A program made the translations under genes and the position numbers. Below are positions 342-6,580 of a stretch of 34,061 nt of DNA, piece after piece; position 1 is the stretch's first letter; each line of letters begins with the position of its first letter. Source of the stretch: Alphaproteobacteria bacterium (GTDB taxonomy: Bacteria; Pseudomonadota; Alphaproteobacteria; GCA-2731375); NCBI GenBank assembly GCA_029936195.1, contig JAPYUH010000005.1, forward strand, positions 15,821-49,881. The letters run 5' to 3'. Under the pieces are notes generated by a model, which worked only from the letters and a program-made list of their open reading frames with translations, was not told the origin of the DNA and did no database searches.

Positions 342-1997
342 TCATATGCGGCCATCGTAGGCATTACGGCCAATCTCGCAGGCCAGCAAGGTGAAGGTTT
401 CCCGCCCCCCGGCATCCGACATGGCGGCGGCGATGCCGGCGCGGCTGTAGATCGCCACCCCATGGCCGCCCATGGCGTTGGCCAGGGCGACAAAATCCGT
501 GGCGCCGAATGTCACGCCCAGAGGCTGAAGGCCACTCTCCCGCTGTTTCTTTTCGATCAGGGCAAGGGCGTGGTCCACGAACACCACAACCAGGATATTT
601 TGCCGCAAATCCCGCAAGGTGGCCAATTCGCCCATGACCATTTCCAGGCTGGCGTCGCCCATGAAACCGATCACCATGCGGTCGGGGGCCGCCAGTTTGG
701 CGCCGATGGCCAAGGGCAGGGCGCAACCCATGGTGCATAGCGCCGAGGATTGCAACAGGCCGCGGGGCTGGAAACAGCGCCAGATTTGCGACAGCAGAAT
801 GCGGTGGGCACCGCTGTCGGCGGTGGCGACGGCATTGTCGGGGCTGTGTTTTTGAATTTCGTCGACCAGGGCGCCGGGGCCCCAATCTTCGTCAGCCCGG
901 AACGCCGCGATCAGCGCCGCCCGCGTTGCCGCCGCCTCGCCATTGGGCCAGGTTTCGTTATGCCCGCCGTCCCGGCCCCCACCTTGTCCCAGTGCCCCAA
1001 GGCCCGCGCCCACATGACACCGGAAGGACCAGCGCGCCTGATGCATGTAATGGGTGTTTTCCAAACCGCCTAGTTCTATTACATCCGCGTCCCGCGGCCA
1101 GGGGTCGCGCCAGCCCACACGCATTTCGATGGGGTCATATCCGGCCAGGATAATGCAATCGCTTTGCGCCACCAGCGGCAGCAAATACCGGTCCGCCAGG
1201 GGCGACAGCCCGGCGCCACCCAAGGCCAGGGGTTCGTCCTCCGCCAGCACGCCCTTGGCTTTGTATGTGGTGATGAGAGGAACCTGAAATCGGCGCGCGA
1301 ACGCCGCCACGGCATCGGCGGCATGATCATGCAAAACGCCAACACCGGCGATTAGAATGGGCCGTTCGGCGGCGGCCAGACAGGCCTGGGCCGCCTCCCA
1401 TTCAGGGCCGGGCGCGGGCGCCAAGGGCTGCGTTGGCGCCTGCAACCGGGCCCGTTCGGCGCCCTGGTCCATGGTCGCGACCGCGATCGGCACGTCAATA
1501 TGCACCGGACCGGGAGGATAGGCGGTGGCGATGGCAATGGCTTTGTCCACCAACACATCCACGGCGCCGCTCGCCAGGGTCAGGGAAGCCTTGGTGATGG
1601 GCGCCAGCAAGGCGGCATGGTCAAGGACCTGATGGGTGTAACTCGCCGCCTCGGCCGCATCGACACGGCCGGTGATAAAGATCAGCGGCACCTGATCCTG
1701 CAGGGCGTTGGCCATGACGTTGGCGGCATTGGCCACGCCGGGCCCCAGGGTCGCCAACAGGACACCCGGCGCGCCGGTGACGTGGTGGGTGCCCTCGGCC
1801 ATGAAGCCGCCGGAATTTTCATGCTTGCACAATTCGAACCGAATGCCGGCCCGGTCCAGGGCCGCCATCACCGCTAAAACCTCGCCGCCGGGTATGCCAA
1901 AGGCATGGCGGCAGCCGGCCCGGAACAGGGCGCGGGCCAGAATATCGACACTGCTATTCATCTCGTCCCAACTTTCCCCGGCAGTTTGGTCATCCAT
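342..1997 (-). CDS. Thiamine pyrophosphate-binding enzyme (acetolactate synthase large subunit-like family)
   Basis: FGIPGGE, HENSGGFMA (catalytic Glu), TLGPG, TMGCALPLAIGA and a GDA-type TPP/Mg motif. Start uncertain (ATG 1997 or ATG 1961). Confidence 0.85.
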   Translation of the reverse strand: MDDQTAGESWDEMNSSVDILARALFRAGCRHAFGIPGGEVLAVMAALDRAGIRFELCKHENSGGFMAEGTHHVTGAPGVLLATLGPGVANAANVMANALQDQVPLIFITGRVDAAEAASYTHQVLDHAALLAPITKASLTLASGAVDVLVDKAIAIATAYPPGPVHIDVPIAVATMDQGAERARLQAPTQPLAPAPGPEWEAAQACLAAAERPILIAGVGVLHDHAADAVAAFARRFQVPLITTYKAKGVLAEDEPLALGGAGLSPLADRYLLPLVAQSDCIILAGYDPIEMRVGWRDPWPRDADVIELGGLENTHYMHQARWSFRCHVGAGLGALGQGGGRDGGHNETWPNGEAAATRAALIAAFRADEDWGPGALVDEIQKHSPDNAVATADSGAHRILLSQIWRCFQPRGLLQSSALCTMGCALPLAIGAKLAAPDRMVIGFMGDASLEMVMGELATLRDLRQNILVVVFVDHALALIEKKQRESGLQPLGVTFGATDFVALANAMGGHGVAIYSRAGIAAAMSDAGGRETFTLLACEIGRNAYDGRI

Positions 1998-2084
1998 GCT
2001 CAATTGATCGTTACCAGCTTCCTGGACAACTCAGACCTTGCTAGACTAGCCATACTCTATTTTAGTGCGAAAAGGACAGCCGTC

Positions 2085-2732
2085 ATGAGTTTAGCCGAAC
2101 AGTTGGAAAAGATACGCGCCGGCTCGGCAAAGCGTTTGCCCGAACACACGCGGGCGGTCATGGCCGCCGGGACCCAGGCCTTGCGCGACAGCGGCCTGAT
2201 GGACCGGGCCTTGAACGCCGGTGACCGGCTGCCCGCATTCGCGTTGGAGAATGCCCAGGGTACGGTCGTTCGTTCCGACGAGCTGTTGGCCAGGGGCCCC
2301 ATGGTGGTGACTGTTTTTCGCGGAGTCTGGTGACCCTACTGCAATGCAGAGCTGTATGCTTTGCAAGGCACTCTGAACGAGCTTGAAGACCTGGGCGCCA
2401 GCCTGGTGGCGTTGACGCCGCAAAAGTCCGAGCACAACCGCGCCAGCACGGATAAGAACAATCTAAACTTCCATCTCCTGACCGACCCGGGCAATGCCTA
2501 TGCGGCGGAACTTGGCATACGCTTCGAGCTACCGGCCGATCTGCGCCAGGTTTATCTGAGTTTGGGCATTGATCTGGTGGCATACAACGGTAATGAGAGC
2601 TGGACCTTGCCGATGCCGGCGCGTTACGTGGTTGACGGGGGCGGCATCATCCGGGCCGCCGACATTAGCGTGGATTACACACACCGGCCGGAGCCCGGCA
2701 AAACCCTCGACGACCTGCGTGGACTTGTCTAA
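2085..2732 (+). CDS. Peroxiredoxin-like (AhpC/TSA family) selenoprotein, 215 aa, Sec at codon 83
   Basis: AGGA RBS then ATG 2085. In-frame TGA 2331-2333 in FRGVW-U-PYCNAEL. The downstream ORF (2361..2732) is in the same frame and continues the fold (LVALTPQ, LLTDPGN, WTLPMPARYVVD). SECIS-like hairpin follows the UGA. Confidence 0.9.
2345..2365 (+). promoter_or_regulatory. Putative bacterial SECIS element
   Basis: UGCAGAGC-UGUAU-GCUUUGCA: 8-bp stem with one G-U pair, and a 5-nt loop with G at position 2 followed by U. The stem begins 11 nt after the UGA. Confidence 0.75.
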
Positions 2733-3384
2733 CGCAACGGCTCATCTCATTCGGTCCTGGTGTTGGGCCGCGCTGGTTTTGATATTGGCGGCTTGTGCCG
2801 CGCAGGCGCCTTTCGAGGGCAGCACCTCGTCGGACGACAAGACGATATTTGTCACCTCCAACGGCTGGCATACGGGCGTTGTCATGGCGAAGTCGGATAT
2901 CCCGTTCGGCCTGTTGCCCGAAGCGGCCGACTTTGCCGAAGCCGCGTACTTTGAATTCGGCTGGGGCGATGCCGAATTTTACCCGGCCAGGGATGTGACC
3001 GTCACCATGACCATGGCCGCCGCCCTGGTGCCGACCCCGGCGGTGATGCACATGGCGGGCCTATGGACCAGACCGGCGCGATACTTTCCCAAGGCGGAAG
3101 TCATCCCCTTGATCATTTCCGCGAAGAATTTCGGCCGTCTGGCTGCATTCATTGACGGCAGTTTCAAGCGGCCCGGCGCCGGACGGGTCTCTCATTTCAC
3201 GCCGGGGTTATACGCCGCATCGGGATTCTATCCCGCCAAGGGCCGCTTCCATCTGCTCAACACCTGCAATACCTGGACGGCGCGGGCCCTTCGCGCGGCG
3301 GGTTTCAAAATTGATGCCCGGGGCACCACCCAGGCCGAGGCCTTGATGCAGCAGGTCCGTGGGTTATACAGAGGTGCCGGTTAA
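2719..3384 (+). CDS. DUF2459-family (TIGR02117-like) putative lipoprotein
   Basis: IFVTSNGWHTG, YFEFGWGD..FY and FHLLNTCNTWTA motifs; hydrophobic leader with LAAC lipobox. Start GTG 2719 or TTG 2725, overlapping the end of the selenoprotein gene. Confidence 0.75.
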   Translation: MDLSNATAHLIRSWCWAALVLILAACAAQAPFEGSTSSDDKTIFVTSNGWHTGVVMAKSDIPFGLLPEAADFAEAAYFEFGWGDAEFYPARDVTVTMTMAAALVPTPAVMHMAGLWTRPARYFPKAEVIPLIISAKNFGRLAAFIDGSFKRPGAGRVSHFTPGLYAASGFYPAKGRFHLLNTCNTWTARALRAAGFKIDARGTTQAEALMQQVRGLYRGAG

Positions 3385-5049
3385 AGATTGCGCGGCCCGT
3401 TCCCGCAGCTCCGCCTTGCGCACCTTGCCAGTGGAGGTCATGGGCAGTTCGGGCAGAAACAAAACATGCCGGGGGATCTTGAACGAGGCGATCCGGCCCC
3501 GGCAATAGTCCAGGATCGCATCCTCGTCAGGCGCCCGCCCCGCCTTCGCCACCACGAAGGCGACGGCCACTTCGGTCAATCGATCATCGGCATGGCCGAC
3601 CACCGCCACATCGGCCACGTCCTCGTGGCCCAGCAGATAGCCCTCTACTTCCATGGCATCCACATTCTCGCCGCCGATCTTCAGCATATCCTTGTAGCGG
3701 CCCAGAAAGCGGAGGAAGCCGTCGGCCCGCAAATAACCCATGTCGCCGCTATGAAACCAGCCGTCTTGGTCATAGGCGGCGGCCGTTTCTTCCGGTTTTT
3801 TGTAATAACCCAGCATCAGATTATAGGATTTGATGATGATTTCACCCGGCGTGCCCGTGGGCTGATCGTTGCCGGTTTCGGGGTCGATGACCCGGAAGTC
3901 AAAGCCGTCGCAGGGATGGCCGGAGGAATAGCAGATTTGTTCCCGGCTCGAATCCAGAAACGACAAACAGGCATTGCCGCCGATTTCGGTCATGCCATAG
4001 GCGGTGACGGGCCACATGGGCGCCAGCACATCGAGGGCCCTGCGCAGCACCGGCACCGCGCTGTTGGTGCCGCCACCGAATATGCCGGTGCGCAGGGATG
4101 ACAGGTCCCTGGCCCTGGCCTCCTGGGCATCGATCAGGCCCTTCACGTGGGTTTCGAAGCCGGACAACTGGGTCACGCCTTCCGCTTCGATGGCATCGAG
4201 ACAGGCTTCGGGATCAAACATTTCCACCAGGATCTGCCGGTTGCCCGTGGCCATGGACAGCATCGGCCCATCCAGATAGCCGAAAATATGGAACAGGGGC
4301 AGATAGTTGAACATCACATCCCGCTCCGTCGTGCCCAGAACCTTTACCCGGTCGATCTGATTGCGCAAAAAGCCATGGCTGCGCACGACCCCCTTGGGAA
4401 AGCCCGTGGTGCCGGAGGTGTACATGATGAACGCCGGATCATCGCGCCGGACTGCCGCCGCCCGCCGGGCCAGCTCCCCATTCAGCGCATCATCGTCGTT
4501 GCCCGCGATCCCGGCCCAATGATGGGTGCCGAAGGGCGCCGCCGCCGCAGCTTCCGTGGTTTTGATAATGATCCGTCGCAGATATGGAAATTGTTCGGAA
4601 TTGATCGTGCCATTTTCAGACCGTTCCTCGTCCCCCACCATCTCTCGGGTCATTTGCCAATAGTCGATGGGGCCGGAGGTGTCATGGGTGATCAGAGTGC
4701 TGCAATCCGCCTGGCCCAGAACATAGGCCGCATCCGCCGTGCGAAAACGGGTGTTTATGGACACCATGACGGCGCCCACCCTGGCGATGGCAAAAATCAG
4801 GTGGATCCATTCGGGGCAATTGTTCAGCCATACCGCGACCCGGTCGCCCGTGCCGACCCCGGCGGCAATCAGCCCGCGCGCCACCTGATCGGAGCGGGTG
4901 GCAATATCGGTGAAACTCTGCCTCTCGTCGCGAAAGGCCAACGCCTCCCGACCGCCCCAGCGGTCCGCCGCAAGCCCCGGCAGATCGGCCAGGGTGGTGG
5001 TGTCATTCCACGGCGTTGGATTAGGCGACGGGTTTGGCGCCGGGTTCAC
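3364..5049 (-). CDS. AMP-binding protein / acyl-CoA synthetase (ANL superfamily)
   Basis: YTSGTTGFPKG, AYGMTE, GWFHSGDMG, GRYKDMLKIGGEN, TSTGKVRK. The GTG start overlaps the upstream amidohydrolase stop (GTGA). Confidence 0.92.
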   Translation of the reverse strand: MNPAPNPSPNPTPWNDTTTLADLPGLAADRWGGREALAFRDERQSFTDIATRSDQVARGLIAAGVGTGDRVAVWLNNCPEWIHLIFAIARVGAVMVSINTRFRTADAAYVLGQADCSTLITHDTSGPIDYWQMTREMVGDEERSENGTINSEQFPYLRRIIIKTTEAAAAAPFGTHHWAGIAGNDDDALNGELARRAAAVRRDDPAFIMYTSGTTGFPKGVVRSHGFLRNQIDRVKVLGTTERDVMFNYLPLFHIFGYLDGPMLSMATGNRQILVEMFDPEACLDAIEAEGVTQLSGFETHVKGLIDAQEARARDLSSLRTGIFGGGTNSAVPVLRRALDVLAPMWPVTAYGMTEIGGNACLSFLDSSREQICYSSGHPCDGFDFRVIDPETGNDQPTGTPGEIIIKSYNLMLGYYKKPEETAAAYDQDGWFHSGDMGYLRADGFLRFLGRYKDMLKIGGENVDAMEVEGYLLGHEDVADVAVVGHADDRLTEVAVAFVVAKAGRAPDEDAILDYCRGRIASFKIPRHVLFLPELPMTSTGKVRKAELRERAAQSLTGTSV

Positions 5050-6194
5050 TGTTGGGGAAAACCATACAATTTCGCCGCATTATCGTAGGTGGTCTTCTGC
5101 CGGATGGCATCGGGCAGATGGCCCATTTCCCGCTCTATGAATTCCTGACTGTCGGGCCAGATGCCGTCGGGATGGGGGAAATCAGAGCCCCACATAATAT
5201 TGTCCTCGCCCAGATTATCGACCAGTTTCATGCCGACGGGATCGCTTTGGAAAGTGGCATAACACTGGCGGTACCAATATTCCGACGGCTTCATTTTCAG
5301 GGTCAGGTCCTTGAACTGATCCTCCCATTCCAGATCCATATGTTCCAGGATATAGGGGATCCAGCCAATGCCGCTTTCCCCAATGACAACCTTCAGGTCT
5401 GGATGGGACTCCAGCTTGCCGCCGAATATGATCTCCATCAACTTGTTGGACATCAGCATTTGAAAGGCGGTGATGAAGACGGCGAAGGCCTGGCGCGCTT
5501 CCAAGGGCTCCATGGAGGCAAAATCCGGCGCCTTCGTGCCGCCGCCGGTGTGGAAATGCAGGGGCAGCTTGGAGGCCGCCGCCGCCGCGAACACCGGGTC
5601 CCAGTGCTTGTGATACAGGGGCTTGCCGTCGGGGACCGAGGGTATTTCCAGGCCCCGGACCCCGCCGCGCGCCGCCACGCGCTCAATTTCCGCCACCGCC
5701 GCGGCAATATCGTGGCCTGGGATGGACGCGATGCCCGCCAACCGGTCGGGGTAAGTGCCGCAAAAATCGGCCAGCCAGTCATTGTATATCTGCATCATCA
5801 CGATGGAGGCGTCCGGGTCGTTTAAACGCCCCGCCGCGCCCAGAATACCGTACAGAACCTCGCCCACCACGCCGTCCAGATCCTGATCCTTGATGCGCAG
5901 CTCGGGTTCGGTCAGGCGGCGGATGCCGTTCTTGCCATCCTCGTACAGGCCTTGTTCCGCCATGCGGTCGGAGCGGTGGATAACGCCCGGCACATATTCC
6001 CGCCCGGCCGAGCCCATGCCGTTCTGCAAGCCGAACTGCCCACCGCCGTTGGAGACCCAGACCGGACCAATGGGCCCGTCCGTGACATAGGGCATGCGGT
6101 CCTTCATGGCGGCCGGTGCATTGTCGGTGAACAGATCGGGCGGCAGCCAGATCAGATCAATATGGCAGTCGGCGGAAATCACTCCCTTGGGCAT
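5046..6194 (-). CDS. Amidohydrolase_2 family metal-dependent hydrolase/decarboxylase
   Basis: Start MPKGVISADCHIDL with GAGGAAAGG RBS. Motifs YNDWLADFC, LHFHTG, ESGIGW, MWGSDFPH, DNAAKLYG. Confidence 0.88.
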   Translation of the reverse strand: MPKGVISADCHIDLIWLPPDLFTDNAPAAMKDRMPYVTDGPIGPVWVSNGGGQFGLQNGMGSAGREYVPGVIHRSDRMAEQGLYEDGKNGIRRLTEPELRIKDQDLDGVVGEVLYGILGAAGRLNDPDASIVMMQIYNDWLADFCGTYPDRLAGIASIPGHDIAAAVAEIERVAARGGVRGLEIPSVPDGKPLYHKHWDPVFAAAAASKLPLHFHTGGGTKAPDFASMEPLEARQAFAVFITAFQMLMSNKLMEIIFGGKLESHPDLKVVIGESGIGWIPYILEHMDLEWEDQFKDLTLKMKPSEYWYRQCYATFQSDPVGMKLVDNLGEDNIMWGSDFPHPDGIWPDSQEFIEREMGHLPDAIRQKTTYDNAAKLYGFPQQ

Positions 6195-6253
6195 TTTGAT
6201 GGCCTTTCCTCGGTTCTGGAGTCTTGGTTTATTGGAGTCTCGGTTTTTTGGCG

Positions 6254-6580
6254 TTATTGCACCGAGGAGAATTTGGTCGGCACCAGGAACTGGCTGCTCA
6301 GGGAGGCGACGATCTGGCCGTTGGCCTCGGTCCCAGCGCGTTTTTCCAGCCATTCGGGATCGGTGGCAAAGGCGCCGAACTTCTCCTCCCGCTCGGCCAT
6401 GGAGTCCCAAGCCAGCATGTAGGTCAGATCCTGGTTGGATTCGCCAATCGCCGTGGTCCAAAACCCCGCCTGACGGATGCCAAACCTCTCCCATATGGGC
6501 AGGGTGATGGTCTCGAACCGCTTCAACAGGTCCGGCAGCCGGCCCGGCACGCAATGATAAATTCGTAGTTCGTAGATCAT
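6254..6580 (-). CDS. NIPSNAP family protein
   Basis: MIYELRIYHCVPGRL, GFWTT..G, LTYMLAWDS..ERE..F..F..DPEW, LVPTKFS. GGGAGG RBS. Confidence 0.9.
   Translation of the reverse strand: MIYELRIYHCVPGRLPDLLKRFETITLPIWERFGIRQAGFWTTAIGESNQDLTYMLAWDSMAEREEKFGAFATDPEWLEKRAGTEANGQIVASLSSQFLVPTKFSSVQ

Follow-up and report, generated by a model that had tools for sequence, protein, structure and literature searches.

A probable peroxiredoxin-like UxxC selenoprotein, split at its UGA codon by gene callers, in an alphaproteobacterial genome

Selenoproteins of the peroxiredoxin-like (Prx-like) type with selenocysteine (Sec, U) in the first position of a UxxC motif are established and abundant, and have been catalogued since 2005 (PMC1088965, PMC2398784, PMC13188914). 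A family of Prx-like selenoproteins, named 'Prx-like protein', appears in the Sargasso Sea study (PMC1088965), and Table 2 in the study on Global Ocean Sampling (GOS) gives 225 selenoproteins and 2,740 Cys homologues for Prx-like 1 (pfam00578, UxxC) (PMC2398784). In Table 1 of a 2026 inventory, a 'Prx-like thiol:disulfide oxidoreductase' (PF00578, UxxC/UxxU) is found alongside a 'Peroxiredoxin-like family protein' (cd02970) with the motif UxxS (PMC13188914). Here we analyze a gene at positions 2085-2732 of a 34,061-nt stretch of DNA, referred to below as the window, from an Alphaproteobacteria bacterium of the GTDB lineage GCA-2731375 (assembly GCA_029936195.1, contig JAPYUH010000005.1, positions 15,821 to 49,881, forward strand). 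We are highly confident that this is one gene whose predicted product is a 215-residue cytoplasmic selenoprotein with the peroxiredoxin-like fold of AhpC/TSA and an active site, Sec83-Pro-Tyr-Cys86, of the thioredoxin type. Given the record of Prx-like UxxC proteins since 2005, it belongs to an already known kind of selenoprotein, as an initial reading of the DNA without database searches (the sequence-only reading) had correctly stated.

The described systems differ in how closely they match this protein. It shares with the Prx-like thiol:disulfide oxidoreductase selenoproteins the PF00578 match, the Sec-first UxxC motif (U83-P-Y-C86), the many Cys homologues and the occurrence in marine samples, a comparison made with their published description. 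With cd02970 (PRX_like2) it has in common a CxxC-type motif whose second Cys falls on the peroxidatic site and an otherwise missing Prx triad, but the Sec subfamily of cd02970 carries UxxS (PMC13188914) and the present protein UxxC. The sources of the named Cys homologues (46-50% identity) give these the name 'peroxiredoxin-like family protein', and it is on these source names and on motif logic only that membership in cd02970 would be based. The PRX-like CxxC subfamilies are described as having their second Cys on the peroxidatic site and as lacking the other residues of the triad (PMC3514251). Sec-peroxiredoxin (PF00578, TxxU) is of the same Pfam family and fold and has Sec in the same four-residue window; its Sec, however, is at the peroxidatic fourth position (PMC13188914), whereas here Sec comes first and Cys86 takes the peroxidatic position. 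The glutathione peroxidase-like selenoproteins (PF00255, UxxT in the table of PMC13188914) likewise have a thioredoxin fold and Sec first in a CxxC-derived motif, but they belong to another Pfam family and have Thr at the fourth position, where this protein has Cys; we found no PF00255 match at E <= 0.01. The model of the SelL-related redox protein (NF040769) scored 22.1 bits against a cut-off of 120, and none of the NCBIfam models reached its cut-off for this protein.

One reading frame across an in-frame UGA

The sequence-only reading had noted two open reading frames (ORFs) in a single frame, divided only by TGA 2331-2333 within FRGVW-UGA-PYCNAEL. Translation confirmed this arrangement: the ORFs span 1905..2333 (+) and 2361..2732 (+), and positions 2328-2342 read TGG TGA CCC TAC TGC. 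Translated with TGA as U, 2085-2732 contains one recoded codon, U83, in the context VFRGVWUPYCNAEL. The start is placed at ATG 2085 and not at the upstream ATG 1905 because the N-terminus MSLAEQL recurs, unchanged, across the orthologues. The product matches the Pfam families PF00578 (AhpC-TSA; 76.4 bits, cut-off 26) and PF08534 (Redoxin; 58.8 bits). The features of the gene are as follows.

2072..2076 (+): Shine-Dalgarno-like AAGGA, read from the sequence, 8 nt 5' of ATG 2085
2085..2732 (+): coding sequence, 215 amino acids and a TAA stop, translated with TGA as U; Prx-like redoxin of the AhpC/TSA fold with a UxxC motif
2331..2333 (+): UGA read as the probable selenocysteine Sec83; TGA in orthologues, a Cys column in homologues, contigs concordant
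2334..2336 (+): Pro84 codon CCC, the sole synonymous-frozen codon outside the hairpin; CCC in 10/10 orthologues
2340..2342 (+): codon of Cys86, which closes the UxxC motif and falls on the peroxidatic Cys in alignments to peroxiredoxins; Cys in 113/113 homologues
2345..2365 (+): candidate selenocysteine insertion sequence (SECIS) hairpin; 5' arm 2345-2352, apical loop UGUAU 2353-2357, 3' arm 2358-2365
2616..2618 (+): Pro178 codon, at the cis-Pro position of the thioredoxin fold, which the catalytic Arg occupies in peroxiredoxins

The UGA is conserved at one column over a wide range of divergence. In a set of 41 related genomes (own genome included), 27 had some match and ten had full-length matches (residues 1-214/215, 63-100% identity); each of the ten contains one TGA, always as codon 83, in the context W-TGA-PYCNAELYALQ. 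A 47% identical homologue in the related genome G025 instead has TGC at this column. Among the best 120 database proteins, 113 were full length and seven were fragments; in the 113, column 83 is Cys in 109 and Ser in four, column 86 is invariably Cys, and the flanks are conserved on both sides, so that the alignment proposed by the sequence-only reading came out as it had anticipated. Conservation and homology to the Cys forms also extend over residues 84-91, which lie between the UGA and the TTG at 2361. At the level of the class, an even sample of 301 genomes yielded a homologue at E <= 1e-25 in 41, nine of them with one TGA; in all seven genomes inspected besides our own (L091-L096, L100) the TGA is at the same column, with identity down to 43%, the ninth TGA-bearing match (G098) being outside the inspected set. 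The same column holds TGA, as W-TGA-PYC, in a 40% identical gene (L046, 962-1003) of a metagenome-assembled genome titled Deltaproteobacteria.

Two side observations were made in these searches. A class-level homologue of 36% identity (G057) has an in-frame TAG instead of TGA. Among the related genomes, G004-G021 and others have many weak matches (22-32% identity) in thioredoxin-fold frames of ~160-400 amino acids with one TGA each, which suggests further Prx/Trx-like selenoproteins in this genus.

The coding sequence beyond the UGA appears to be translated. It shows purifying selection and homology to the Cys forms. Over the 45 pairs of the ten orthologues, the median dN/dS was 0.257 for the 82 upstream codons and 0.155 for the 133 downstream codons, and the downstream value was 0.172 without the hairpin codons. 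Decay after the UGA, named by the sequence-only reading as an outcome that would speak against a selenoprotein, is therefore excluded, the close relatives showing none of it (dN/dS 0.16-0.17).

The TGA itself is also found in independently assembled sequences. A 4260-nt contig from run X4 covers 1900-2357 and a 238-nt contig from the RNA library X15 covers 2168-2405, both with no difference at 2331-2333, and a 661-nt contig from run X11 covers 1900-2356 with no differences. Coverage is limited, with only 2 of 30 bins in X5 and no cover over much of the gene in X11 and X15. Thus, where the sequence-only reading had asked whether TGC or TGT might underlie the TGA, the independent contigs keep TGA.

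The relationships among these proteins were examined in a quick maximum-likelihood tree with SH-like approximate likelihood ratio test (SH-aLRT) support. Its 134 rows comprise the ten Sec orthologues, the deltaproteobacterial Sec form, 113 database proteins and ten Cys-form loci, with the seven fragments, the duplicate P0001 and partial loci excluded. The ten Sec forms and four database proteins form one clade (SH-aLRT 99). These four (P0002, P0005, P0007, P0009) are the closest full-length database proteins (54-59% identity) and read W-S-PYC, a peroxiredoxin-type SxxC in which Cys86 is the sole active-site Cys. Because they nest within the Sec clade, Ser has apparently replaced Sec there.

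The candidate SECIS hairpin and the selenocysteine machinery

The RNA downstream of the UGA folds into an 8-bp stem (2345-2352 with 2358-2365) closed by the loop UGUAU (2353-2357) and starting 11 nt past the UGA. The 52 nt from the UGA have a folding energy of -17.4 kcal/mol (z -2.55), and one of 200 shuffled sequences folds as well. The bacterial SECIS model in the legend to Fig. 2 of PMC13188914 gives ranges for the loop, the upper stem, the distance from the UGA and the minimum free energy (MFE), and asks for a G in the first two loop positions. Every value of hairpin 2345-2365 falls within this model:

Apical loop: 3-9 nt in the model; 5 nt (UGUAU) here
Upper stem: 4-16 bp in the model; 8 bp here
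G in the first two loop positions: G at position 2, then U, here
UGA to loop: 16-37 nt in the model; 19 nt here
MFE: <= -7.5 kcal/mol in the model; -16.1 to -17.4 kcal/mol here

The strongest evidence for a SECIS is provided by frozen synonymous sites in the alignment. We compared the 78 columns with an invariant, degenerate residue in the ten orthologues. A single codon is used by all ten in five of the six columns inside codons 88-94, as opposed to one of the 72 columns outside (Pro84 CCC; Fisher p = 1.7e-6, a value overstated by the kinship of the sequences). The TTG at 2361 that opens the downstream ORF is itself inside the frozen hairpin. The freezing of Pro84 CCC means that the UGA-C context is conserved, and we infer that this codon plays a part in recoding. 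The Cys form has no such synonymous conservation, and its RNA folds no better than shuffles (z -1.22). Across 17 Sec-form hairpins, 93.4% of the cells are paired, compared with 27-57% when the 3' partners are slid. The L046 gene differs in having another sequence downstream of its TGA, where plain MFE folding gives a hairpin whose loop lacks G.

The hairpin also coincides with a local difference in the protein. Residues 88-94, which the cassette encodes, read AELYALQ, as compared with M/L-E-L-Q-A-L-Q/E in the Cys forms. A88 and Y91 of the Sec forms correspond mostly to Met and Gln in the Cys forms, a difference consistent with an RNA element that shapes the protein sequence.

The sequence-only reading had predicted a host positive for selA, selB, selC and selD, and the genome bears this out, with all matches above their curated cut-offs:

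tRNA-Sec: contig C273; 68.2 bits, cut-off 47; identified by ARAGORN as tRNA-SeC, anticodon TCA
selA: contig C297; 524.9 bits
selB: contig C297, adjacent to selA; 424.5 bits, full length
selD: contig C265; 386.5 bits, one in-frame TGA

The selD TGA is in the motif GGUGCK (L006:939-941, C265), which makes selD itself a selenoprotein gene. Its hairpin (-25.7 kcal/mol, z -3.81) is at nearly the same distance from the UGA, has GU in the loop and is an internal control for the hairpin in the window. A Sec-type formate dehydrogenase, sought as a second internal control, gave no match above cut-off. In the related genomes, selA is present in 10/10 of those that carry the Sec form. The search found no selA in the 98% complete G025, a carrier of the Cys form.

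A second SelD-like match was also seen (L007, C456:6296-7213; 315.7 bits, no stop). As its open frame is 756 amino acids long, it is probably a fusion protein; Ndh-SelD fusions are mentioned in the GOS paper (PMC2398784).

Fold, active site and competing readings

A structure model built from 59 sequences (predicted local distance difference test, pLDDT, 95.9; predicted template-modelling score, pTM, 0.92) has strand 73-77, then U83, then helix 84-94, which is the position of the CxxC motif in the thioredoxin fold. Peroxiredoxins of the BCP/PrxQ and AhpE types (5epf, 3hjp, 2cx3, 1xvw) are both the best structural matches (TM to target 0.86-0.90) and the best sequence matches in the PDB, with identity of at most 20%. 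Compared with the solved BCP-type structures, only this protein has an N-terminal helical hairpin of ~40 residues (residues 3-35) and a helical insert at 151-168.

In the alignments with solved peroxiredoxins (including 2cx3 and 5epf), FPAAFSPVC and YPAAMTPGC lie over FRGVWUPYC, with Sec83 on the Ser/Thr of PxxxT/SxxC, Arg79 on its Pro and Cys86 on the peroxidatic Cys. The claim of the sequence-only reading that the UGA occupies the redox-active Cys position thus held in part: the column is a Cys column in the homologues, but it corresponds to the first Cys of a thioredoxin-like CxxC, and the peroxidatic position is that of Cys86. Because Sec83 falls on Thr/Ser and Cys86 on the peroxidatic Cys, the protein is not a canonical peroxiredoxin. 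The residues expected of one, Thr/Ser at -3 and Pro at -7 from the peroxidatic Cys, are replaced by Sec83 and Arg79, and Pro178 aligns with the catalytic Arg before the β-strand, Arg180 following two residues later.

The CxxC motif also aligns with thioredoxin-like 2m72 and with ResA. The ResA/TlpA proteins (4nmu, 3c71, 1st9) are our favoured mechanistic model, with WCxxC over WUPYC and PLPTSFLID over PMPARYVVD. This second aligned stretch has a weak E-value both with ResA (4nmu) and with PrxQ (2ywn), where PMPARYVVD lies under AKRAVFVID and Pro178 on Arg. We take the second Pro of PLPTSFLID to be the cis-Pro of the thioredoxin fold. Pro178, Arg79 and Arg180 are all nearly invariant in the homologue alignment. 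ResA/TlpA proteins are extracytoplasmic, anchored and serve cytochrome c maturation, whereas the present protein has the modelled N-terminal helical hairpin; with no signal peptide evident by eye in its translation, it is probably cytoplasmic. The ResA and DsbE models score 29.2 bits (cut-off 170) and 20.4 bits (cut-off 123), respectively, a resemblance in mechanism only.

We propose that SelB with Sec-tRNA(Sec) would bind hairpin 2345-2365 and deliver Sec to UGA 2331-2333. Sec83 would cap the N-terminal end of helix 84-94, as the nucleophilic Cys does in thioredoxin, and may attack an oxidised substrate, either a disulfide or possibly a hydroperoxide. Cys86 would resolve the attack product into a Sec83-Cys86 selenenylsulfide, to be reduced by a cellular thiol reductant, for example thioredoxin or glutathione.

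That the UGA encodes Sec is, on the combined sequence evidence, very probable, and the sequence-only reading's single 215-residue selenoprotein with Sec83 is supported jointly by the TGA in 10/10 orthologues, the hairpin and the downstream constraint. Read-through without Sec, for instance by near-cognate decoding as Trp or Cys, would also give a full-length but selenium-free protein. UGA-C would be a weak terminator, and the conserved CCC (10/10) fits such read-through. We nevertheless regard it as very unlikely: the genome holds complete Sec machinery, the hairpin agrees with the SECIS model and has the spacing of the SelD element in this genome, the homologues have Cys in this column, and selA accompanied the Sec form in 10/10 genomes. 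Slightly less credible still is a real stop, which would make the locus a pseudogene or, as in the databases, two small genes with 82- and 123-residue products. Gene callers do report the 123-residue products (seven clusters), and the TTG at 2361 offers them a start. Yet this TTG is part of the frozen hairpin, the split would break the thioredoxin fold within CxxC, residues 84-91 share conservation and homology with the Cys forms, and dN/dS is low on both sides over the 45 pairs; moreover, the TGA is kept down to 43% identity, and varied lesions would be expected of a pseudogene. A sequencing or assembly error for TGC or TGT has a negligible probability, as the TGA is present in ten related genomes, in the seven more distant ones inspected and in at least 120 metagenome stretches, and the contigs of three other runs that cover it show no difference there.

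For the chemistry of the selenoprotein, we lean moderately towards thiol/selenol:disulfide oxidoreductase activity over that of a classical peroxidase, since the Thr and Arg of peroxiredoxins are replaced by Sec and Pro, and since the active-site alignments agree with what PMC3514251 describes for PRX-like CxxC subfamilies. The same selenoprotein might instead be a peroxidase, with either Cys86 or Sec83 reducing hydroperoxides and the other residue resolving, as in Sec-peroxiredoxins and glutathione peroxidases. The BCP/PrxQ/AhpE peroxidases are the nearest to it in fold (TM to target 0.88-0.90), the peroxidatic Cys is matched by Cys86, Arg79 and Arg180 hardly vary, and the four relatives with Ser83 in the Sec clade are SxxC proteins in which Cys86 is the sole active-site Cys. 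On the other hand, Arg79, Sec83 and Pro178 occupy the positions of Pro(-7), Thr/Ser(-3) and the catalytic Arg, and the combination of CxxC with cis-Pro is a thioredoxin-type arrangement, as in ResA. We consider the peroxidase less likely, but a credible rival.

Several points weigh against our reading of the locus as a selenoprotein oxidoreductase. The best structural matches, BCP and AhpE, are true peroxidases, which bears on peroxidase chemistry, and Arg180, two residues past Pro178, could act as a substitute Arg. Sec83 is assigned indirectly, from sequence and genome evidence. Covariation across the 17 Sec-form hairpins gave one compensatory pair, C-G to U-A in G212, which is not above shuffles; because the hairpin hardly varies, covariation is uninformative here. 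An Rfam scan of 2250-2450 at E <= 10 returned chance-level matches only and no SECIS family. The X15 contig from the RNA library is a weak sign of transcription and does not prove it. The neighbourhood of the gene (thiamine pyrophosphate (TPP)-dependent enzyme, DUF2459 lipoprotein, acyl-CoA ligase) is shared only with a 90%-identical relative, and no conserved partner emerged. Finally, the assembly consists of 540 contigs (94.7% complete, 3.63% contamination) with the machinery on other contigs, so the gene and the machinery are linked by binning only, a doubt that the 10/10 co-occurrence with selA in the relatives answers in part. Taken together with the evidence above, the selenoprotein remains the reading that we prefer.

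Genomic setting, distribution and annotation

No redox partner was found among the genes that neighbour the selenoprotein gene. A divergent TPP-dependent enzyme is encoded 81 nt upstream (342-2003, -), and an AMP-binding acyl-CoA ligase-like enzyme and an Amidohydro_2 protein are encoded at 3364-5049 (-) and 5046-6554 (-), respectively. Downstream is a DUF2459 protein (2719-3384, +; 135.4 bits) with a lipoprotein-like signal, LILAAC, judged by eye. Its gene probably starts at GTG 2719, so that its first 14 nt are shared with the end of the selenoprotein gene; this pairing recurs solely in the relative of 90% identity. A naive scan for further U-containing redox motifs across the window was too noisy in this GC-rich DNA to be useful.

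In public metagenome contigs, the 37-nt pattern of UGA plus hairpin occurs exactly in at least 120 stretches. Of these, 80 loci were examined and the full frame was present in 59; 56 of the 59 align over >190 residues, with identities of 45-98% and a median of 54%. The 37-nt cassette is thus preserved almost letter for letter while the remaining protein diverges. Short contigs stack on 2328-2365, their flanks diverging yet still reading ...FRG-x-W. Because the cassette is common to many diverged genes, it is a likely cause of the fragmented assemblies at this gene. Summed depth over 2328-2365 was up to 125, against ~9 beside it (X11), and contigs of public assemblies break or stack there.

It is conceivable, though we advance it tentatively, that the gene represents a distinct UxxC subfamily of the PRX_like2 (cd02970) branch that is unlisted in the 2026 inventory and is characterized by the 37-nt UGA-plus-SECIS cassette, by proteins diverging to about 45% identity and by a presence in several alphaproteobacterial families. 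Alternatively, it may belong to the inventory's PF00578 entry with UxxC/UxxU. The literature found on cd02970/PRX_like2 together with selenocysteine was limited to a 2026 review and a survey of cyanobacterial PRX, and the supplements of selenoproteome studies may list such a subfamily.

The sequence-only reading had expected standard pipelines to report the gene as fragments, and they do. Seven database clusters are 123-residue C-terminal fragments of 75-98% identity that start at TTG or ATG just past the TGA, from which it follows that gene callers split this gene. A collection of 5.8 billion proteins contains no full-length match above 59% identity, although orthologues of 63-90% exist in genomes. 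The gene is real, widespread and systematically mis-annotated.

The gene opens no new kind of system. Its SECIS, compact, highly conserved and coding at the same time for the start of the active-site helix, would be a clean case of a constraint shared by RNA and protein. Should the subfamily reading be true, the lineage in which Ser appears to have replaced Sec would be a natural experiment on the identity of the catalytic residue. Selenium use in this lineage is confirmed, alongside a Sec-containing SelD. Since the full-length protein is missing from the collection and fragments are found in its place, the redox inventory of uncultured marine Alphaproteobacteria is understated; as the cassette recurs in at least 120 metagenome stretches, many records would be mended by a single correction rule.

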